A DNA stretch of 35,185 bases from an uncultured Gammaproteobacteria bacterium (GTDB lineage: Bacteria > Patescibacteriota > Patescibacteriia > Magasanikbacterales > GWA2-37-8): the NCBI GenBank assembly GCA_964363685.1, contig CAYIJG010000003.1, positions 1 to 35,185 on the forward strand, written 5' to 3'. The position numbers were made by a program, and so were the translations under genes. Within the stretch, counting starts at the first letter, position 1, and each line of letters begins with the position of its first letter. The notes under the pieces were generated by a model. It had not been told where the DNA came from, ran no database searches, and saw nothing but the letters and a program-made list of their open reading frames with translations. Positions 9,457-32,480 of this stretch are shown piece by piece.

Positions 9457-9591
9457 ACACTATTAAACGTTACTAATTAAAATACTTAGCTTAACGAGCT
9501 AAGTAAGTATGCTAAAAAGACTAAGGAATGTCAAGACTCCTTGTCTTTATGATTGTGAGGATGTGGCTCTTAATCTACTTTTAAAAAATTA

Positions 9592-14064: not shown

Positions 14065-14470
14065 ATAGATAAATTTAAAAATAAATATAGTAGTCTATGT
14101 ATGATTTTTTTAGGTGGTTCTTTAGAATAAGCAGTAAATTTAAAATGTAGTACTTAATTTTTTTCTTTTTCTTCATCTGCTACATCTTCTTTTGCTTCTG
14201 CTACCCCTTCTTCCACCGCGTCTTTCGCTGTTTGGTACGCTTCTTCCTCCACCGCGTCAGCTAATTTATCGTCTGCTGGATCTGATATAGATTGCATATA
14301 TTTTATATTAAGAATAAATTACATATTTTTTATTTTGTATTGTTGATTAATCAATTATTTAATCGACTAACAATTTAATTGTACATTCTAGTAGATTGTT
14401 CGTCAATAGCTAGTAAAACAAATTTTCATTTAGCAAAATTAGAACCGGAAAAATACGGCTATGATTATAC

Positions 14471-14498
14471 AAAAAACGAAGCACTAAATACGCTTCGT
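14471..14498 (-). terminator. rho-independent terminator of the 19012-14567 operon
   Basis: Minus-strand ACGAAGC-GTATTTAGT-GCTTCGT followed by TTTTT, 6 nt after repeat R1. Confidence 0.6.
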
Positions 14499-14504
14499 CT
14501 ACCT

Positions 14505-14533
14505 TGGCTCCGTTTGTGGAACGAAGTTAGAAC
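14505..14533 (+). repeat. R repeat copy 1 (TGGCTCCGTTTGTGGAACGAAGTTAGAAC)
   Basis: One of four same-orientation copies of a 29-nt motif. Lies 33 nt beyond the stop of the 636-aa minus-strand gene. Confidence 0.75.
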
Positions 14534-14566
14534 TTGTTTGGCTAATAGTTCAGATCGATTTTTACC

Positions 14567-16477
14567 TTAAAAAACCACAAGAGCAGTATTGCCAATATAA
14601 GCCCAAAGACTTTTAAAACTAGAAACACTAACAGTTCTTGGTCCACGCCAAGGATCATTCACAATTATAGAAGTTGGATTTTCTACATTTCCCACAAAGC
14701 CTTTTACCACTACCGAATGCATCCCGCGATAACCGGTAGCGCCTGAATCCAGTAGAAACGTACCTGACGAGCCGAGCTGATTGTGCACCCAAATTATTAC
14801 AGGATTACCCCTTTCTACCTCTTTTACTAGATCGACAATATTCCAATTCCTTTTTAACTCTACAGAACGATATTTACTTATAAAATCATATATTGGCCCC
14901 CAATGCACGCCGTAACCTTGCACCCAATCTACATTTGGATCTCCACCCTCACCAACTGTTGCCTTGATAGAACCTTCCGAAAGAGCGGTTCCTCTATAAG
15001 CAAATACCATGCGGGTGGCGGCAATATTGCAAGTAAAAGTTTCGCTTTGGTAATACATAGGTACGTCCAAAGAAAAAACTTTATTTTTTGTGGTAAATGA
15101 ATAATTGTAATCTTCATTTGAGTCTAATCCATACACAGTTTTGATACTCTTTTTTAACTTTATACTATATTTTGTTGAATTATCCAGAGAACGACTGAGA
15201 GAAAACACCATTTTATTACCTTCCCAAGAAAAAGACCCTGGAATATTTGGATACATAGAAAAAGAATTTTCCGCTGAATTGTGATCCACCTCTTGATCAA
15301 ATTCAATTACCACTCTGGATAAATCGATAGATAGGCCATACGAAGCGTCTTTGGGATATATTGATGAAACCTTAACTTCTCCAACTACACTAAAATTTAC
15401 CTCTATATCATGGTCAGTTTTTCCACCATATTTATTTTCCATCTCACTCAAAAATTTGATTGTATAATCAACACCCTTTTTAAATTCATGACTTGGTAAA
15501 AAAATAAAAGTTTGCTCATCTTCCCAATTTATTTTACCGGTAGTTGTTGGACTAATGTAAAATTTTTCTACCACGCTCGTATGATTCATAGCTTCAGAAA
15601 AAACTATTTTTATAGGACTATCAACTCGCACAGTATTTCCTTGGTCATACAATTTAATGAAGGGAGAAGCTACGGTCTTAAAGTTAATTTTCTGAATCAA
15701 CTCCAAATCACCCTTTTCAATATCAGAAAAATCTTTGACACGATAAGAGCGCCCAGCTCTAGAGATTGATAAACTATATTCACGGTCCTGCAGAAGTGGT
15801 TTTGAGAATATTAATTTATTCTTATTATTATCTGACTTGTCGACAGTAAAATTAATTAGTGGACTGATCTCATAAACCCAGTTTACGAATTCCCCACTCG
15901 GCGCGTCAAAAATTATTTCAAAAGGGTCTTTTATGCTAATATTTTCTTGACCGTTTTTCGGGTAAATCTCTTTAATATTAGGAAGATTGGGGGAGAAAAA
16001 TTCAATAGATTGTTCGTGTTTTTCACCACCAGGAAATAATCTTTTCAAACCCACTATATATACTACAATTTTGGTCTCCGGATAAAAAGATTCTTTGGGA
16101 ATAAAAATCGCTCTATCTTTGTACCGTCCAGAAAAAAATGGTAAAGCATTTTGAAAAACCCAATCACCTTCAACTTCCGGGGACATACGAAGAGATACAT
16201 TCTCTGGATTAATAGGGACCGTAAAAGATACTTCGATTGGTTGATGCGCCTCTACTAAATACCCGGCCTCAGACACAGTTTCCAACCGGAGAAAGGGCCT
16301 TGAAAATAAAGTAACGAAAGAGAAAAATAAAACAAAAACAATAACCGCCGTATTTAATAGAACCAAAAGACGATAATATCGTTGTTTCTTATAAAGTAGA
16401 AAATTAGACACAGCTACAATAATAATAGCGATAAAAAATATTAAAATACGTGTTTTAAAACTTAAGAATGAGTCCAT
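14567..16477 (-). CDS. membrane-anchored Ig-like repeat protein with C-terminal C39-like peptidase domain
   Basis: 636-aa ORF with N-terminal TMs and several about 90-aa beta-rich repeats. C-terminal papain-fold signature: FTCNIAATRM (Cys) and MHSVVVKGF...IIVNDPW (His/Asp). Confidence 0.7.
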   Translation of the reverse strand: MDSFLSFKTRILIFFIAIIIVAVSNFLLYKKQRYYRLLVLLNTAVIVFVLFFSFVTLFSRPFLRLETVSEAGYLVEAHQPIEVSFTVPINPENVSLRMSPEVEGDWVFQNALPFFSGRYKDRAIFIPKESFYPETKIVVYIVGLKRLFPGGEKHEQSIEFFSPNLPNIKEIYPKNGQENISIKDPFEIIFDAPSGEFVNWVYEISPLINFTVDKSDNNKNKLIFSKPLLQDREYSLSISRAGRSYRVKDFSDIEKGDLELIQKINFKTVASPFIKLYDQGNTVRVDSPIKIVFSEAMNHTSVVEKFYISPTTTGKINWEDEQTFIFLPSHEFKKGVDYTIKFLSEMENKYGGKTDHDIEVNFSVVGEVKVSSIYPKDASYGLSIDLSRVVIEFDQEVDHNSAENSFSMYPNIPGSFSWEGNKMVFSLSRSLDNSTKYSIKLKKSIKTVYGLDSNEDYNYSFTTKNKVFSLDVPMYYQSETFTCNIAATRMVFAYRGTALSEGSIKATVGEGGDPNVDWVQGYGVHWGPIYDFISKYRSVELKRNWNIVDLVKEVERGNPVIIWVHNQLGSSGTFLLDSGATGYRGMHSVVVKGFVGNVENPTSIIVNDPWRGPRTVSVSSFKSLWAYIGNTALVVF

Positions 16478-18012
16478 ATATTATACATATCTTCTAAATT
16501 TTTATATAGTACCGGACCACTGTCTCTTGAATTCAAATAGACATCGGTGTAATTAAAGAGTTCATCAACTTTTGATTCGTCTACATGAAACCAATCTGGA
16601 TGACTTAAGAAAACTACGACGGTTCTTTTTTCAAGCGGCTCGCCAACTACTCCCCAATTTGAATTAAACCTCTCTATCATTTGTTCTGCAGTATACCACC
16701 ATGAGTCACCTCCATTGTTTGGAAATTCCCATATTTTCATATTTGGTGCCCTAGCTGAATTTTGATCTTGCGTATTGGGCTGATACGGCTGCGAGGTAAT
16801 TGATAAATCCCAAAATCCAGGAATTTTATTTATACCAAAATTGTATTTTGTTCTACCAGAAGTGTCTACGGTAAAACCGTTATCTTGTAAAACCTTTAAC
16901 GTAGTTACGTCTGCAAACCAGCCACCAGAGCGATAGGTGGTTGGCGTTCCGAACCCAAGATTTTTAAAAAAAATTTTTGACCATTTTACCATTTTGTCCA
17001 GCTCGCGATAACCAAAATTAGTTACCAGAATATCATACCCGTCATCATATGGAAAACCCCAGTATGTTAAATCGTACAGTTGTTTCTTTTTTAATTTACT
17101 TTTATCAAATATAACGGTAGTGCTCGGTGAGCTCGTAACGGAGTTCTCGGCCAACGCATAAAAATCTAGCTCAAGATCAGCTAGATCTTTTTCCGGAATA
17201 TCTATATGTGCGGCCTTAAGATTTTCATAAAACATATGCAAATGCAAACCCAAACTATGACCTTTGTTGGTTTTTCTTTCCAACAACCAATCTCTTATAT
17301 GGTCTCGTTGTGCTTGCGGAATAGTTTTGGTAATAAATAGTCTTGGATTTATTAGATGGCTCAGAGGAAAATTATCATGTTTTTCAGAAAGAGCGTCTAT
17401 TTTTTCCAGATATTCATTTTTTACATTATAACCCTCCCAATCAAAACTCCAAGCGACATATAAAGGATAAGAAATAAAAATATGTTCATAAAAACCTAGT
17501 GACTGGCCACAAGCAAACTCTACTTTTATATTGGCCTTGTATTTACCAACAGGCAAACTAGTTACATTTATTTTTTCCTCAAACAAAAGCTCACCTACAT
17601 TTATTAGAGAGCTCGTAGCAAAGTAACCAGACACCACATTGTTTGTCAGCTGTTCATTTTCCGTATTTACTAGCTCATAAAAAATCTTTATAGAATCCGG
17701 CCGATCGAAATATCTTTTTGCTTTACTGCCAAGCTTCACTTTTAAAATTACTTGCTTTTCTTCTTCTGCAAATTCATCACCGATTAAAATCCATTTTTTA
17801 TCGGGCTCTACCAGATCAATCAACTCATTTCTTTTGTTCTCAAAATTATTACAGGTCCAATCCTTAAAAAAAAGATCATTTGGATTTTCCGATTTAATAT
17901 GTAAAAAAAATATTACAAAAAGACTACAAACTAAAAATAGCGTTAGCCCAGCTAGCACATGCCAAAATCTTCTAGATCTTCTTTCTCTGCCAAACAGTGG
18001 CCACTTTATCAT
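16462..18012 (-). CDS. membrane-anchored hypothetical protein, possibly polysaccharide-deacetylase-like
   Basis: 516-aa ORF with one N-terminal TM. WSFDWEGYNV and GLHLHMF segments vaguely resemble NodB-type motifs. Overlaps the downstream gene by 16 nt (operon). Confidence 0.5.
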   Translation of the reverse strand: MIKWPLFGRERRSRRFWHVLAGLTLFLVCSLFVIFFLHIKSENPNDLFFKDWTCNNFENKRNELIDLVEPDKKWILIGDEFAEEEKQVILKVKLGSKAKRYFDRPDSIKIFYELVNTENEQLTNNVVSGYFATSSLINVGELLFEEKINVTSLPVGKYKANIKVEFACGQSLGFYEHIFISYPLYVAWSFDWEGYNVKNEYLEKIDALSEKHDNFPLSHLINPRLFITKTIPQAQRDHIRDWLLERKTNKGHSLGLHLHMFYENLKAAHIDIPEKDLADLELDFYALAENSVTSSPSTTVIFDKSKLKKKQLYDLTYWGFPYDDGYDILVTNFGYRELDKMVKWSKIFFKNLGFGTPTTYRSGGWFADVTTLKVLQDNGFTVDTSGRTKYNFGINKIPGFWDLSITSQPYQPNTQDQNSARAPNMKIWEFPNNGGDSWWYTAEQMIERFNSNWGVVGEPLEKRTVVVFLSHPDWFHVDESKVDELFNYTDVYLNSRDSGPVLYKNLEDMYNIWTHS

Positions 18013-19012
18013 AAAAATAGGTTACTAGAGATATGCTTATTATAATTAAAAATTGTATTAACCAGACTGTTTCTGCGGCAAATGTTGCGTGATTTAAAAA
18101 ACTAGATAAACCTAAAATTAGGATCACATTAACCAAAAAAATAAACAAAGCTCTGTTGCCTAAAAATATAAAATATTTATTTAGGACACTTGCTTGGCTG
18201 ATATATTTGTATAGTAATACTACCCCGAAACTATAAATAATTCCATAGAGTAAAAATAAAATAGATGGCGGAAATCTATACCACAGAGAAAGTCCTGAAA
18301 TTCTTAAAAAAACAAATAAAATCGAACACATTATAAAAATTAATAGAGCCGGTGATTTACCGACGCTACTTTTTTGTGTTCCACCAGCAATGAATCCAAA
18401 AACAAAGGTAGGAAAATAAGACAAAACTCCATAACTATGAGTATGCCCATTGCCCACCATCAAGGTTTTCACAACAGTTAAAAAATCACCCCCTCCATCA
18501 AGTGTATACAGCCATCCACCCAAAAAATAAATAATGAAAGAAATTAAGATAAATACTATTGGTCGCTTTAATAATTTTTTTAAAACTGGAGAAAAAATTA
18601 AAATTAGAATAATATAAAGAAAAAATGGAATAATAAACTCAGTAAAGACAGGTAAATATTGAAAGGTCAAAATAGAATGGAACTGGTCAATTGAGATACC
18701 GTTAAAAAGAAAATAATAACTAAGATATGCTGCTACATAATAAATGAAAAGCAAAAGCAACATTCTTTTAACTTGTTTTTTTAAATTTATTTTTTTATTG
18801 TCAGATAATTTTAAACCATAGATATAAGCAAAACAAAATAAAAAGGTGCTAAAACTGACTGTTGTCCCCCACCATATCAATCTATCTAAAATAAAATTAT
18901 ACTCTTTTACAAAAACGACATTGATATGAGCAGTGAGCATGAAAAAGATCGCGCTTCCTCGTAGAAAGTCAATTTTTGCAAATCTTTCTTCTGTGGGTAA
19001 GTTTAGAAGCAT
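17972..19012 (-). CDS. acyltransferase-3/DUF1624-like polytopic membrane protein
   Basis: 346-aa ORF with about 10 TMs. N-terminal IDFLRGSAIFFMLTAH motif typical of acyltransferase-3 / heparan-alpha-glucosaminide N-acetyltransferase-like families. Confidence 0.6.
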   Translation of the reverse strand: MLLNLPTEERFAKIDFLRGSAIFFMLTAHINVVFVKEYNFILDRLIWWGTTVSFSTFLFCFAYIYGLKLSDNKKINLKKQVKRMLLLLFIYYVAAYLSYYFLFNGISIDQFHSILTFQYLPVFTEFIIPFFLYIILILIFSPVLKKLLKRPIVFILISFIIYFLGGWLYTLDGGGDFLTVVKTLMVGNGHTHSYGVLSYFPTFVFGFIAGGTQKSSVGKSPALLIFIMCSILFVFLRISGLSLWYRFPPSILFLLYGIIYSFGVVLLYKYISQASVLNKYFIFLGNRALFIFLVNVILILGLSSFLNHATFAAETVWLIQFLIIISISLVTYFYDKVATVWQRKKI

Positions 19013-19091
19013 AGCTTATTATATAAAGCATACCATAATAATGAAGAACTCACTACGTCTTCAACAACCAGGTAAACTCCCTCCGGTTCGG

Positions 19092-19127
19092 CAAAAACAA
19101 AAGAGGCCAGATCACTTTGACTGGGCC
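19092..19127 (-). terminator. rho-independent terminator after the 95-aa ORF and repeat R2
   Basis: Minus-strand GGCCCAG-loop-CTGGCC (one bulge) followed by TCTTTTGTTTTT. Confidence 0.55.
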
Positions 19128-19202
19128 CCGTAGACATAAACCAATTTTCAATTTATCTGATATTACAGATAAACATGCCCTTTCGAGTGTGTTTACCTCA
19201 TG

Positions 19203-19231
19203 TGGCTCCATTTATGGAACGACGTTAGAAC
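19203..19231 (+). repeat. R repeat copy 2 (TGGCTCCATTTATGGAACGACGTTAGAAC)
   Basis: Lies 36 nt beyond the stop of the 95-aa minus-strand ORF. Similarity to R1 extends about 20 nt further (TT.TTTGG..A..TAGTT). Confidence 0.75.
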
Positions 19232-19266
19232 TTTTTTGGAAAGATAGTTGGTTTACTTGGTATTCT

Positions 19267-19554
19267 TTATGATATTTTTCGTATCTTTCCATTATTTAAA
19301 ATTGTTTTTCTAAGAACATAGCTATCTGGTTTAACTAGAGGCACATCTAAACGTACTGAGAAACCAGAGATTTTAGGATCCGAACGACCTGAGTACTTTT
19401 CTTCAATTACCCCTCTATGCTTAACACCGTCTTCTTCAAATTCGATTCTATCCCCTACTTCTAAATTAGATTCTCCTCCCACCTCAACTATTTCTCCAGT
19501 AAAACCTTCAAGCTCATCAGTAGGGATTCCTGATCCTTTAAATTCTCTAGGCAT
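19267..19554 (-). CDS. hypothetical small acidic protein (host-like low G+C)
   Basis: 95-aa ORF bounded by repeats R2 and R3. EVGDRIEFEEDGVKHRGVIEE resembles small SH3/KOW-like beta-barrel proteins (weak). Confidence 0.55.
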   Translation of the reverse strand: MPREFKGSGIPTDELEGFTGEIVEVGGESNLEVGDRIEFEEDGVKHRGVIEEKYSGRSDPKISGFSVRLDVPLVKPDSYVLRKTILNNGKIRKIS

Positions 19555-19667
19555 AATAAAATATGGGTACCCTAATAAAATTAGCCAATAAAACTATCTA
19601 CTTAATCAAAAGCATAGTTTAATTGTATCAGAAGTTCTAAAGTCTCGTAAAGCCCAACTGTCCGATG

Positions 19668-19696
19668 TGGCTCCACTGCCTAGACGACATTAGAAC
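19668..19696 (+). repeat. R repeat copy 3, divergent (TGGCTCCACTGCCTAGACGACATTAGAAC)
   Basis: Keeps both conserved boxes (TGGCTCC and GACGAC.TTAGAAC) but has a different central 9 nt. Same orientation as the other copies. Confidence 0.65.
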
Positions 19697-19737
19697 CGAT
19701 TTTATTTACAATAGGTCTGATATAAACTTTATTATTT

Positions 19738-19808
19738 AAAAAACAAAAACTCCGTTCGCCCTGATCTATCTCCAATTACTTAGAAACAAATCAGGTGGTG
19801 CGAACGGA
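19738..19808 (-). terminator. long-loop hairpin terminator module downstream of the GC-rich ORF (T module, island 1)
   Basis: Minus-strand CTCCGTTCGC-(ACCAC)-CTGAT-24 nt AT-rich loop-ATCAG-G-GCGAACGGAG followed by TTTTTGTTTTTT. Confidence 0.6.
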
Positions 19809-19858
19809 GTCTCGCACCACCGCCCCCGTGCATTGACGCGCGAGGAGCGTGGTGTCCG

Positions 19859-20191
19859 CTAGTCCGGCTGATCCGAACGTTCCACGCCTTCGCGCGAACG
19901 CCACTGGATCAGGTCGAACCGACGCTTGAACTCGGCGCAGGCCACGATCGCAGGACCCCGGTGACCGAGGCCGATGCGGACGTGACGCATGACGTTGCCA
20001 GTGCCGTCGAACTCGTGGCACGGCTCCATCCGGCAGTCCTGACCGCCGCTGCCGTTGCCATCGGTCGACATCAGCACGTTGCTGGAGGTACCGTCATCGT
20101 GGAACAGAACGGCCTCCTTCTTGCCAGTGTCTCCGTCGGTTGCGCCGGTGATCATGAGGTGATCACCATCTCGAGCAATTGCCTCTGCCAT
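19859..20191 (-). CDS. foreign high-G+C ORF A, hypothetical 110-aa protein
   Basis: ATG preceded by a purine-rich GGGGGGAAGGA. Third codon positions are mostly G/C in this frame (read by eye). Own upstream promoter and downstream terminator. No family recognised. Confidence 0.6.
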   Translation of the reverse strand: MAEAIARDGDHLMITGATDGDTGKKEAVLFHDDGTSSNVLMSTDGNGSGGQDCRMEPCHEFDGTGNVMRHVRIGLGHRGPAIVACAEFKRRFDLIQWRSREGVERSDQPD

Positions 20192-20284
20192 TGTCTTGTC
20201 TCGATCCTTCCCCCCGGTTTCCCAGGAAAATGAATAACAATCGCGTTATTACCCCTTTTCCGGTGAAAATTATTTCAATAAAAA

Positions 20285-20313
20285 ATATTACCAAATTTTA
20301 GGCAATTTGTCAA
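20285..20313 (-). promoter_or_regulatory. sigma70-type promoter for ORF A (TTGACA-17-TAATAT)
   Basis: Minus-strand TTGACA at 20313-20308 and TAATAT at 20290-20285, within the AT-rich spacer between two GC-rich blocks. Confidence 0.6.
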
Positions 20314-20361
20314 TGCCTTAAATCGAGATCTGCATACAACCTATTAATGCAAGCGTCTATA

Positions 20362-20390
20362 TTGACAAAGGAGCCTTTCTGTGATAATCT
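20362..20390 (+). promoter_or_regulatory. sigma70-type promoter for ORF B (TTGACA, TGtGATAAT extended -10)
   Basis: TTGACA at 20362-20367. GATAAT at 20383-20388 is preceded by TGT. Divergent from the ORF A promoter. Confidence 0.55.
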
Positions 20391-20577
20391 AGTTTGTTAT
20401 TAGAGTTGTTTTTTGTTACTAATTTATGACAAAAATCCTTAATAGCATGTACCTTACAATAAACATGTGATCTATTGAGTGCCAGGAAATTAAGAAAGTT
20501 TGCCTAAGCAAGTATTTTTAATTCCCTGGTTCTCTCTCAACCTCAACCCCTCAACACCCTGGCCAAAGGAGCCTCTC

Positions 20578-21054
20578 ATGAGCGAGTTCGTATTGGCGAT
20601 TCCCGTGGCGCTGGTCATCCTCTTCTTGATCTGGAAGATCTGGCGGTACCTCAACCGACGCCTCGAAGAAGCCTTCGTGGAATGGTCCAATACTACCGGA
20701 CAGATGAAGTGGAAGGTGATCGCCATCTTCAGCCAGATCATCCTCCTGTTGCTGGTGCTCGCGATCGTCCCCGGTATTGCGTTGTTCGGGGGCGGGTGGA
20801 AGAGTGTCGGCGACTTCGTCCATTACAAGAATGGCGACGTCGGCATGCTCATCTACGGCCACTGGAACCTCTCACCGGCGATGGCGAACTACTACCTCAT
20901 GGGCGACGTCGTCCTGGGACTACCGCTTCTGATGATAGTGTTCTCAGTCATCGTCGAACCGGCGATGTTCCTCGCAGGCGGGTACAGGTACTTCCCATTC
21001 GTCGGGCCCTTCGGTCGATGGGTGGCGCCACCCTCGAGGAGGCGGTCACGGTAG
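20578..21054 (+). CDS. foreign high-G+C ORF B, hypothetical 158-aa membrane protein
   Basis: Start chosen at the ATG 6 nt after AAGGAG (20566-20571). About 4 hydrophobic helices and strongly G/C-biased third positions. The track ORF from 20500 includes AT-rich leader. Confidence 0.65.
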   Translation: MSEFVLAIPVALVILFLIWKIWRYLNRRLEEAFVEWSNTTGQMKWKVIAIFSQIILLLLVLAIVPGIALFGGGWKSVGDFVHYKNGDVGMLIYGHWNLSPAMANYYLMGDVVLGLPLLMIVFSVIVEPAMFLAGGYRYFPFVGPFGRWVAPPSRRRSR

Positions 21055-21206
21055 TTGCTACTGATCAAGCCCTTCGGGGCAAGATCCATGAGCGGCTCGG
21101 ACGCAACGCGCGACCGACCACCGCTCAGACCCACACCATCCGAGCCGCTTACGCTACCTAATAATTAATTTGTTATGTTGCGTAAGCTCAGATGAGAATT
21201 AAATTT

Positions 21207-21238
21207 AAAAAAGCCTTTTCAAAAGAAGGGCTTTTTTA
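21207..21238 (+). terminator. rho-independent terminator after ORF B
   Basis: AGCCTTT-CAAAA-GAAGGGCT hairpin (with G-T pairs) followed by TTTTTT. Confidence 0.6.
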
Positions 21239-21256
21239 GTTGAAGGATTTTTGATA

Positions 21257-21284
21257 TGCTCCGTTTGTGGAACGACGTTAGAAC
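21257..21284 (+). repeat. R repeat copy 4 (T-GCTCCGTTTGTGGAACGACGTTAGAAC)
   Basis: 28 nt, one base shorter at the 5' box. Sits between the ORF B terminator and the ORF C terminator. Confidence 0.75.
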
Positions 21285-21324
21285 TTTTTATAACTACAAA
21301 ACAATATAGTTTCGTTAGTGAGTT

Positions 21325-21366
21325 TAAAAAAACACCTTACTGTTTTAAAGTAAAGTGTTTTTTATT
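21325..21366. terminator. bidirectional hairpin terminator downstream of ORF C
   Basis: AACACCTTACT-GTTTTAA-AGTAAAGTGTT stem flanked by an A-run and a T-run. Confidence 0.6.
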
Positions 21367-21472
21367 TTTATATATCGAGATCTCCACTGCTATATTTATT
21401 TGCAATCATATAAACATAGCAGCTAGGAAGACCTCGAGAGATCGCCCCGCCGCGCGGTTTCACTAACGACTA

Positions 21473-21856
21473 TTAACGACTGTAGATAGAGTTGTGGAAA
21501 CCCGTGTCGTTGTTCTCACGGATTGGTGTGAAAACGTAGGCAGGTGCGAGTGCCTCCGGGGGACACTGACGAAAGAAGTCGTCTTCACATCCCCTAAATT
21601 CCTGCCACGGCGGAAAATCACTGACAGAGATAGAGCCAGGGGTGCGCGGATGTCCAAGACAGCCGTTACGGACATGTCCTTCGAGGATCTTGAGCAGATT
21701 CCCCATCACCGTTCCAAAGAGCTCGGGCGAAGTGAAGTGAACCTCTCCATCGAAATCGTCAGGAAACTGAATTCTGTTGAAGCGGAGGTCTGTCAGTATT
21801 GGCTCTAGATGCCACCGGTGTGCTGCCTGACATGGCGCTGTAGGAGTCGCCACCAC
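21473..21856 (-). CDS. foreign GC-rich ORF C2 (second reading frame; possible 3' part of a frameshifted gene)
   Basis: 127 codons open after a TAG, with only a GTG start. Protein-like translation (LTDLRFNRIQFPDDFDGEVHFTSPELFG...). Overlaps ORF C1 by 98 nt in another frame. Confidence 0.45.
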   Translation of the reverse strand: MVATPTAPCQAAHRWHLEPILTDLRFNRIQFPDDFDGEVHFTSPELFGTVMGNLLKILEGHVRNGCLGHPRTPGSISVSDFPPWQEFRGCEDDFFRQCPPEALAPAYVFTPIRENNDTGFHNSIYSR

Positions 21857-22277
21857 GCTCTAGACAGCCGTCAGCGCTAAGACCGCGGGAAATGTGGGGG
21901 AAGGGATCTGTCCATCCCAAACCAGCGAGCATGCCCACATTGATCCTGAACTCCCAGTAGGCATTCGTCTCGAGCTCAAACTCTTTCCGTTGAGAAGAGC
22001 GGCCAGACGGTGATCTGGTGATCGTTTCTACGTAGCGAGGATGGAGCAGGAGCGCCATCCCAGGAACGCCGAAGAAGAGGGTGGTGATCCGGAGAAGCGC
22101 CAGATTGGCCACGTCGTTGTCGGGCAGCATCATGACGGTCCGGCGGACGGCGTGGTAGATCGAATCAATCGAAGCACTACCGAGGAAACGCAGAGTACCA
22201 ATGGCCGTGGCCGCCTTCACACATTCATCGAAGTAGCGGTCGGGAGTCGGGATATGAGCAAGCGGCCGATTAAGCAT
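21759..22277 (-). CDS. foreign GC-rich ORF C1, hypothetical protein
   Basis: Start set at the ATG (22277) preceded by AAGGGG. The track start at 22334 lies in AT-rich leader. 172 codons; no family recognised. Confidence 0.55.
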   Translation of the reverse strand: MLNRPLAHIPTPDRYFDECVKAATAIGTLRFLGSASIDSIYHAVRRTVMMLPDNDVANLALLRITTLFFGVPGMALLLHPRYVETITRSPSGRSSQRKEFELETNAYWEFRINVGMLAGLGWTDPFPHISRGLSADGCLERGGDSYSAMSGSTPVASRANTDRPPLQQNSVS

Positions 22278-22394
22278 GTGTAACCCCTTGTTATCCGTTT
22301 GGTCAAGTAAAAAAGAGCCGACTAACCGTATCATAAGTTTTTTATAAAGTCAAGATTGTGTCGTGCAGAAATTAATACTCGTAAAATGTACGCA

Positions 22395-22425
22395 TAAAAA
22401 ATAACCGCTTGGTTAAGCGATTATT
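22395..22425 (-). terminator. rho-independent terminator of tRNA-Asn
   Basis: Minus-strand AATAATCGCTT-AACC-AAGCGGTTATT followed by TTTTT, 9 nt after the tRNA 3' end. Confidence 0.7.
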
Positions 22426-22433
22426 TTTCTAAG

Positions 22434-22505
22434 CTCCCAGGGTCGGATTCGAACCGACGACCAACTCGTTAACAGCGAGCTGCGCTACCGCTGCGCTACC
22501 TGGGA
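22434..22505 (-). tRNA. tRNA-Asn (anticodon GTT)
   Basis: 72-nt cloverleaf read by hand. Acceptor stem TCCCAGG/CCTGGGA and D arm GCGC-AGCGGTA-GCGC. Anticodon arm GCTCG-CTGTTAA-CGAGT and T arm GTCGG-TTCGAAT-CCGAC. Discriminator G; CCA not encoded. Confidence 0.9.
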
Positions 22506-32283: not shown

Positions 32284-32480
32284 TGCGTACACTCCCCACG
32301 ACAGATCACGAAAGCTCCGTATGGAAGGTCACTCGACCTCAGACTATCGCAAACGCGACGGTCTAGCTTCCAATAACTATACAATTTAGTGCCATGCTGA
32401 ACGAAAAGAAAAACTTAACAGAAATTCTTCGCTTCATTCAGAATGACAACTAAAAATTGAGAGATTTAAAGAACTGCAAA

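Follow-up and report, generated by a model that had tools for sequence, protein, structure and literature searches.

What could place four similar short repeats on one strand of a Patescibacteria genome, in a row behind a tRNA gene, with a different set of genes between each repeat and the next? The question is raised by a stretch of 35,185 nucleotides, called the window below at that full length (contig CAYIJG010000003.1, positions 1 to 35,185, of assembly GCA_964363685.1), in which four copies of a 27-nt motif, R1 to R4, occur between positions 14507 and 21284. We propose that these repeats are donor-side (P-type) half attachment sites of large serine recombinases (LSRs) that integrate small elements at the 3' ends of tRNA-Asn and tRNA-Gln genes, a reading to which we assign a probability of roughly 80%. 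The array in the window is a stack without any recombinase of its own, integron-like in its layout and made from different parts.

A preliminary description of the window had reported four same-orientation copies of a 29-nt unit, and the four repeats are real: the pattern GCTCC-N9-ACGANNTTAGAAC matches without mismatch at 14507-14533, 19205-19231, 19670-19696 and 21258-21284, always on the plus strand, where the chance expectation is 0.22 matches with three mismatches allowed and where four matches were reached in none of 100 shuffles. The length of the unit has to be trimmed to a conserved core of 27 nt, the two additional 5' bases (TG) lying outside it; R4 is one base short, as had been said, and the missing base likewise falls outside the core. 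The informative strand is the minus strand, which is that of the tRNA-Asn gene and of most genes, and the repeats are therefore given below in their minus reading, with scores from a weight matrix built from related motif copies, together with the tRNA gene and the recombinase remnant on which the argument depends.

14507..14533, minus strand: R1, GTTCTAACTTCGTTCCACAAACGGAGC; 36.0 bits; putative attP-type site, a donor half-site still joined to the tail of a recombinase gene
19205..19231, minus strand: R2, GTTCTAACGTCGTTCCATAAATGGAGC; 34.6 bits; putative attR-type site
19670..19696, minus strand: R3, GTTCTAATGTCGTCTAGGCAGTGGAGC; 30.0 bits; the most divergent copy
21258..21284, minus strand: R4, GTTCTAACGTCGTTCCACAAACGGAGC; 38.0 bits; putative attR-type site, a donor half-site followed by non-recombinase DNA
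22433..22505, minus strand: tRNA-Asn(GTT) gene, called by ARAGORN and Rfam; the anchor, on the attB-type side of the array
14421..14510, plus strand: relic of an LSR gene, its last ~30 codons (NFHLAKLEPEKYGYDYTKNEALNTLRLPWL), continuing in frame through R1 (LRLWNEVRTCLANSSDRFLP) to a stop codon at 14568-14570, within the open reading frame (ORF) 14379-14570

When the same matrix is run over the whole genome of the window (G000; 979 kb in 99 contigs, 39.6% GC, the window being its contig C3), a search that the preliminary description had proposed, six sites score above 25 bits and all others score 12 bits or less. The six are the four copies in the window and two on another contig, at C23:11413 and C23:11755, and both groups lie downstream of a tRNA-Asn gene, so that the motif is confined to two tRNA-Asn-linked arrays. 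A dispersed repeat of the repetitive extragenic palindromic (REP) type, or a generic element of 3' untranslated regions (UTRs) scattered through the genome, was accordingly rejected, since there are just six copies in 979 kb and every one of them is behind tRNA-Asn. The sequences at 32314-32328 and 9561-9584, which had been taken for weaker relatives, are not members, with scores of -9 to -13 bits. R1 and R2 do lie beyond the stop codon of a minus-strand gene, by 33 nt and 35 nt respectively, and their similarity does extend past the motif, at 85% identity across 47 nt. The region of R4 is 81% identical to C23:11233-11447, with homology ending 8 nt past the edge of the motif, and R3 with 48 nt of adjoining DNA is 88% identical to copy b of a relative, G011 (L020:8544-8618), the DNA past the GGAGC end being unrelated.

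The second tRNA-Asn(GTT) gene of the genome, C23:12453-12525, which is followed by its own two-copy array (C23:11755 and C23:11413), shows three mismatched positions in the acceptor stem, where 5' TCCCAGG faces 3' CCCCAGA. Recombination may have left a hybrid or disabled tRNA here, or the DNA may come from a second strain in the bin.

What, then, is the motif? On the minus strand it reads GTTCTAAC-GTCGTTCC-ACAAAC-GGAGC and consists of an outer box GTTC[T/G]AA, a 5-bp spacer C[A/G]TCG and an inner, tRNA-like part TCC-N7-GGAGC. Aligned to the neighbouring tRNAs, motif positions 1-7 correspond to tRNA positions 53-59 and motif positions 13-27 to tRNA positions 60-74, with five extra bases between them; the tRNA gene has both boxes and no spacer, and 22 nt stand against 27 nt in every tRNA/motif pair aligned, the 22-nt counterpart in the window being the 3' part of the tRNA-Asn gene, GTTCGAA-TCCGACCCTGGGAGC. 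On these alignments the motif is the 3' end of a tRNA, from the T-loop to the discriminator, with five bases added. Its variable part covaries with the adjacent tRNA, 46 pairs giving 159 matches where 10,000 permutations averaged 127 and never exceeded 158, and its end follows the identity of the tRNA, being GGAGC with tRNA-Asn, GGAAC or CGAGC with tRNA-Gln and CCGC with tRNA-Ser.

A sequence that resembles a T-loop with the 3' strand of an acceptor stem, and that is invariably placed after a stop codon and ahead of a terminator on the strand of the gene, might alternatively act as RNA, for instance by marking the 3' UTRs of cassette mRNAs for processing or stabilisation, with tRNA-maturation enzymes recognising it. 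We regard this as very unlikely because the partner strand for the acceptor or T stems is absent, because base-pair covariation within the motif is absent among 205 distinct copies (top mutual information 0.29, with a low Watson-Crick fraction), and because in Rfam 15 tRNA-Asn alone reaches the threshold, with no overlap with the repeats even at E <= 1. Such a signal would also leave the variable cargo, the coding of a recombinase tail and a prophage junction, all described below, unexplained. A simple RNA hairpin within the motif was rejected as well, as sub-families permit differing hairpins and yet covariation is lacking across the same copies.

The connection to a recombinase is made at R1. 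The ORF at 14379-14570 reads ...NFHLAKLEPEKYGYDYTKNEALNTLRLPW-LRLWNEVRT..., and its residues 15-44 are identical at 24 of 30 positions (80%; BLASTP E 1e-15, tblastn E 5e-9) to residues 531-560 of an LSR encoded at L055:2982-4697 in another genome of the sample, G232. There the element is complete, with tRNA-Asn, the LSR gene, three further genes and then the motif following one another. R1 therefore combines a recombinase tail with a donor half-site, which leads us to read it as an attP-type junction, and R2 to R4 are, as far as their sequences tell, attR-type scars.

The association of LSRs with tRNA genes extends well beyond this one relic. Genes with a Resolvase domain (PF00239) are present in 147 of the 240 genomes of the order and encode LSRs of 500-600 amino acids where examined; the best-scoring 30 such loci have ORFs of 500-600 amino acids that run at their 3' ends into a tRNA gene of the other strand. 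LSR 3' ends overlap tRNA-Asn in G012 and G005, both of the same genus as the genome of the window, and in G232, and Pfam assigns the Resolvase, Recombinase and Zn_ribbon_recom domains to all three enzymes. The G232 LSR has nine relatives, and all those with a tRNA call at the end of the gene (seven of the nine) terminate inside tRNA-Asn or tRNA-Gln; IMG/VR holds no relatives of it. In three further loci (L167, L205 and L212) the last ~16-40 codons of an LSR ORF are encoded by the motif, that of L167 ending ...LRGLDDVRTFLLEVYT before its stop codon.

These observations account for the codon-like appearance of the repeats. The preliminary description had noted a pattern WL(R/H)LWN(D/E)VRT in the plus frame and had suggested that the repeats might be duplicated fragments of the end of a gene; the pattern is real and is the C-terminal tail of an LSR gene, and the fragments are indeed those of a gene end, that of the recombinase itself and not of a host gene into which something had integrated. 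The plus frame looks coding because the attachment site lies inside the recombinase's own gene. The same frame had also been offered as an independently translated family of micro-peptides (MWLHLWNDVRTF...), given that R2, R3 and R4 begin with ATG, and the frame is in fact open in nearly all copies (3 stops in 728 codons). We nevertheless reject the micro-peptides as exceedingly improbable: there is no conserved start, ribosome-binding site or length, the frame running from stop to stop over 17-130 codons with the motif anywhere in it, a terminator hairpin lies upstream, and the frame is explained as the tail of an LSR gene.

Another protein-coding resemblance proved misleading. Six IMG/VR matches read FPIWDDVRTF in the same frame, which might have made the motif a relic of a phage C5-cytosine methyltransferase gene; the similarity is confined to the motif, the genome of the window has no PF00145 gene, and the 10 matches found are about the chance expectation (~14, by our own estimate), so that this candidate was rejected and the resemblance judged to be chance. 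The phage contigs concerned (L057, L059 and L061-L064) carry the FPIWDDVRTF within C5-cytosine methyltransferases, encoded by a 27-mer that fits the motif, and could mislead pattern searches.

A second relic is seen elsewhere: in Magasanikbacteria GW2011_GWA2_37_8 (L252, positions 2483-2677), and also in L248, there is a 64-amino-acid remnant of the G232-type LSR family with an end like the 3' half of a tRNA (LRGWDSNPRPI...). ARAGORN calls no tRNA at the end of the L252/L248 relic, which may be a decayed attL with a truncated tRNA.

How would such sites come to lie in a row? In the free element, the recombinase gene would cross the attachment site antisense, with its last codons (W-L-R-x-x-D-D-V-R-T...) encoded by the motif. 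Upon integration the gene would come to end inside the tRNA gene, and its detached tail would be left as a 27-nt scar at the far end of the insert; repeated insertion at the tRNA would then displace the older inserts outwards.

The place at which inserts are joined can be read from comparisons with a relative, G014, in which the DNA after ...GGGAGC of the tRNA is homologous to the DNA after ...GGAGC of each copy of the motif. The terminator that stands next to tRNA-Asn in the genome of the window sits after motif copy 1 in G014, and from this displacement it follows that a unit of terminator, promoter region, gene and motif was inserted exactly after GGAGC. Different families contain identical 27-mers flanked by unrelated sequence on both sides, and many of the flanks after GGAGC have ATATC-AAAA in common, which hints that the cassettes may imitate the downstream half of their target. 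A prophage fragment (L060, IMGVR_UViG_3300009529_003397; 52% GC, with terminase, SPP1-type portal and capsid genes) carries the motif at 14696-14722 and joins AT-rich, Patescibacteria-like DNA exactly at ...GGAGC. By analogy with the numbering of the LI integrase, the centre of the site would be the GA of GGAGC (CC in the variants linked to tRNA-Ser), which is common to motif and tRNA, and the crossover would accordingly be placed at or beside this GA; such a placement agrees with flank homology that begins right after GGAGC.

The 27-mer of this prophage fragment is also present twice in the genome contig CAZTIC010000099.1 (L104), a possible link between a phage and its host.

Alternatively, the cassettes might be swapped by homologous recombination after DNA uptake, the motif and the terminator serving as portable frames of homology (an "expression slot") without any site-specific enzyme. 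The terminator modules after the tRNA and after the motif copies are indeed 85-90% alike over ~75 nt in G014 and G011, and the genome of the window has neither an LSR nor any other candidate integrase. This explanation seems to us improbable all the same, as identical 27-mers between unrelated flanks are too short for RecA-type exchange and are typical of the core site of a recombinase, as the motif is the 3' end of LSR genes, and as a constant offset of 5 bp between attP and attB would be unaccounted for.

The motif is present in 80 of the 240 genomes of the order, often clustered, and an exact-pattern scan of one genome per prokaryote species gave at least 119 stretches, against ~17 estimated by chance; among the matches listed, nearly all are from Patescibacteria, of many classes, and arrays reach seven copies. 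The arrays start just downstream of tRNA-Asn and less often of tRNA-Gln or tRNA-Ser, and G011, G014, G027, G226 and many other Patescibacteria share the layout of the window, with units behind a tRNA. The motif lies from a few to a few tens of bases past the stop codon of a co-oriented gene and ahead of a terminator hairpin. Across an independent Patescibacteria-wide sample, an ORF of at least 80 amino acids ends no more than 100 nt upstream of 98 of 160 copies, compared with 102 of 800 random positions, and in 31 of the 32 loci that have several copies all of these face one way, at a median spacing of 930 nt.

It is the genes between the copies that vary. The genes preceding the motif are mutually unrelated (those in relatives encode alpha/beta hydrolases, a GNAT acetyltransferase, a RhuM/Fic protein and others), and clustering of 763 ORFs from ~110 loci gave no gene family tied to the arrays, the commonest neighbours being the core genes rpoD and dnaG and assorted cargo. 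Comparison of orthologous loci, which the preliminary description had proposed, gave the same picture of variable segments between repeats. G011 is syntenic with the genome of the window on the far side of tRNA-Asn, and inside the array only the motif copies are common to the two. G014 keeps orthologues of the two outer cassettes, A and B (55-76% amino acid identity), and has different, GC-rich cassettes next to the tRNA; at the orthologous place of R2 it has only a degenerate remnant. In G012, G001, G005 and G004, within the genus, the motif is absent and other genes follow the tRNA. The suggestion that the repeats are att-type scars or cassette boundaries near a tRNA is hence borne out by the variable cargo, the derivation of the motif from a tRNA 3' end and the association with LSRs.

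In two relatives the contigs G006:C9 and G009:C7 (loci L067 and L071) stop at precisely the last base of tRNA-Asn, and LSR genes that begin ~300 nt from the end of a contig are numerous in the order. Assemblies appear to break at such junctions, which hints at variation of the arrays within populations.

In the window itself the cassettes, from the far end of the array to the tRNA, are as follows.

14534..19204, minus strand: cassette A, a three-gene operon
14567-16477, minus strand: protein with Big_5 and Peptidase_C39_2 domains (Pfam), in cassette A
16462-18012, minus strand: 516-amino-acid orphan, in cassette A
17972-19012, minus strand: acyltransferase_3 protein (Pfam), in cassette A
19232..19669, minus strand: cassette B, with one orphan ORF of 95 amino acids at 19267-19554
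19634..19646, plus strand: part of the motif's outer box in inverted form (GTTCTAAAGTCTC), lying 23 nt past R3 in the direction of the genes
19697..21257, no single strand: cassette C, with divergent GC-rich orphan ORFs at 19859-20191 (minus) and 20578-21054 (plus)
21285..22432, minus strand: cassette D, nearest the tRNA, with a GC-rich orphan ORF of 191 amino acids at 21759-22334
22396..22426, minus strand: terminator hairpin right after tRNA-Asn (aataatcgc-ttaaccaa-gcggttatttttt), identified from the sequence

Cassette A is orthologous to G014 L074:7003-11487, with amino acid identities of 68-76%, and the ORF of cassette B has an orthologue in the G014 array at 55% amino acid identity. The ORFs of cassette C have no family match in Pfam or PHROG; nor does that of cassette D, which also has no counterpart in the G011 or G014 arrays, and a PHROG search of the cargo genes was uninformative.

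The two tRNA-proximal cassettes (19700-22340) have a GC content of 55-60%, against 39.6% for the genome, while their promoters and terminators are AT-rich; in G014, GC-rich cassettes (58-62% GC) are likewise those nearest its tRNA-Asn. The terminator after tRNA-Asn (22396-22426; loop TAACCA[A/T]G) is itself a repeated module. At G011:C1:164136-169129, for instance, five copies of it stand ~1 kb apart in a second cassette-like region that has one motif copy only, and the observation extends to G010:C7.

One-directional arrays of mostly single-gene cassettes, with ends that carry ...AAC / GTT-like boxes, invite the thought that the motif is an attC-type site worked by a tyrosine recombinase, which might be an integron integrase not linked to the arrays or the Xer protein of the host; each genome examined has one Xer-like recombinase. 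A few copies even have a second, inverted box downstream, and the copies of G014 and R3 looked at first like an integron attC with two boxes. We hold this to be highly improbable, because such second boxes are found in just 8-12 of 67 motif instances and there is no covariation of a folded site, because the sole tyrosine recombinase of the genome of the window is XerC/XerD/XerA-like and scores 74 bits against an integron-integrase cut-off of 265, because a tyrosine recombinase adjoins the arrays in 0 of 10 genomes, and because the motif is without the dyad arms of a dif site. With the second box being rare, attC was rejected, and a Xer/dif site was rejected for the missing dyad arms, for the several array loci per genome and for a GC skew that shows no terminus in the window. 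Nor do other enzymes serve: tyrosine integrases, IS110 and Y1 transposases were considered, and none explains the arrays or is linked to them, the genome of the window having one Xer-like recombinase only.

If the repeats are half attachment sites of LSRs, the array in the window might have been assembled as follows. An LSR element would have entered at tRNA-Asn, after which the insertion of cassette A would have separated the tRNA from the recombinase gene and formed the junction of R1 with the LSR tail. Cassette B would have come next, A and B both being older than the split from G014, and the GC-rich cassettes C and D, not found in G014, would have arrived last. The recombinase gene would then have been deleted save for its last 30 codons. 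Since the genome of the window has no LSR, any present mobility would need an enzyme supplied in trans, and the movement of recombinase-less cassettes in general presumably depends on an LSR acting in the same way.

Several observations weigh against our interpretation. With no serine recombinase gene in the genome of the window, nothing there can now move the cassettes. No LSR was seen on the prophage fragment L060, and for the LSR elements that G012 and G005 carry at tRNA-Asn a distal motif was not detected within 12-14 kb. The inner part (CCACAAAC) of R1, R2 and R4 fits the resident tRNA at TCC and GGAGC only. Dyad symmetry around the full sites is not clearly seen; the P arm, set against the reverse-complemented 45 nt downstream, gives no more than weak matches in R1, L167, L205 and L212. 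Finally, canonical LSRs recombine attP with attB only and do not recombine attP with attL or attR. Repeated insertion at one tRNA would require either a regenerated target or attP x attL reactions of the accretion type.

A bolder speculation, which we offer tentatively and on balance doubt, is that the recombinase-less arrays are a working, Patescibacteria-wide platform for gene capture and not dead scars. The cassettes would be small circles in which a P-type half-site adjoins a flank that mimics the DNA downstream of the tRNA, and an LSR from a phage or a sister element, acting in trans, would insert them, restoring a usable tRNA target and leaving an attP-like site. If true, this would allow repeated capture and reversible excision, in effect a functional analogue of the integron built from serine-recombinase chemistry and tRNA genes.

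Our search of the literature found no description of this system, and larger analogues have been published. The closest of these are the ssrA islands of Dehalococcoides and their serine recombinase DsiB (McMurdie et al. 2011, PMC3146451). Both form multiple tandem units downstream of one t(m)RNA-type gene, with a direct repeat of the 3' end of the RNA gene that is preceded by a conserved, non-aligning motif, and in both the recombinase gene (~540 amino acids in Dehalococcoides) is on the reverse strand with its 3' end overlapping the RNA gene, an arrangement seen here in relatives and in the window as the relic only. In the ssrA islands the recombinase gene adjoins attL and runs at its 3' end into the RNA gene or the repeat, so that the stop codon depends on the junction, and islands without an integration module have been read as cis-mobilisable elements that arose by accretion (PMC3146451). 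The differences are considerable: the target there is tmRNA, as compared to tRNA-Asn and tRNA-Gln broadly across Patescibacteria; the islands are 10-30 kb long, whereas the units described here are 0.4-5 kb and often hold one gene; a six-gene module (DsiA, RecF-like, ParB, Mom and others) was not seen here; the recombinase is wholly missing from the genome of the window; and the insertion is placed in the T-loop in PMC3146451, whereas LSR geometry would put the crossover near the tRNA 3' end here.

The 5-bp offset has a precedent in phage LSRs, in which attB half-sites have the motif of the zinc-ribbon domain 5 bp nearer to the crossover than attP half-sites do (Rutherford et al. 2013, PMC3783163, for the Listeria A118/LI integrase model). 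Exactly this offset distinguishes the 27-nt motif from the 22-nt segment of the tRNA, and the architecture of Resolvase, Recombinase and zinc-ribbon domains is the same. The phage attP, however, lies outside the integrase gene and serves a one-off, one-way insertion, whereas here the site is in the last codons and arrays accumulate; no recombination directionality factor was identified here. A site within the recombinase's own reading frame is known from the SSV-type "suicidal" integrases of archaeal viruses, whose attP is inside the int gene (Mol Biol Evol 2020, PMC7253208). Both systems have a site that matches a tRNA gene and an integration that alters the recombinase gene; the archaeal enzyme is a tyrosine recombinase that is split in two, while here a serine recombinase would have only its last ~10-20 codons exchanged.

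Integrons and clusters of attC sites lacking integron-integrases (CALINs) resemble the arrays in having a fixed entry point, a one-directional row of small unrelated cassettes that each end in a conserved site, the newest cassettes apparently nearest the entry point, and arrays without a linked integrase. They differ in using a tyrosine enzyme, a folded attC and attI, as compared to a serine enzyme, a linear 27-nt tRNA-derived half-site and entry at a tRNA gene, and the cassettes here have their own terminators and apparently their own promoters. The arrays have neither IntI nor the attC architecture and so do not belong to the integrons or CALINs. Staphylococcal cassette chromosome elements (SCC, SCCmec) are inserted by the CcrAB serine recombinases at the 3' end of rlmH/orfX. 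They share with the arrays an insertion by serine recombinases at the 3' end of a conserved gene, direct repeats, and tandem stacking that includes recombinase-less members, and they differ in their protein-gene target, in being much larger and in needing both CcrA and CcrB. The comparison with SCC was also drawn for the ssrA islands (PMC3146451).

The ultra-small Patescibacteria have genomes of ~1 Mb with few recognised mobile elements, and how they acquire accessory genes is poorly understood. The locus points to a route by which an LSR family would dock at tRNA-Asn or tRNA-Gln and leave a 27-nt scar with each insertion, giving rows of unrelated genes, here including an operon for a surface protein and peptidase and GC-rich orphans that have not been ameliorated. 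The scar might serve as a handle for recognising DNA of horizontal origin across thousands of uncultured genomes, for placing the acquisitions in order of time and for linking hosts with elements and phages. The sites display the 5-bp rule for attP and attB in natural sequences, and serine integrases that target tRNA genes with short, defined sites are candidate tools for genome engineering.

One last observation concerns a neighbour of such a tRNA: in another Patescibacteria genome (L103:3071-6052), the DnaG primase encoded upstream of tRNA-Asn holds an intein with a LAGLIDADG endonuclease domain.

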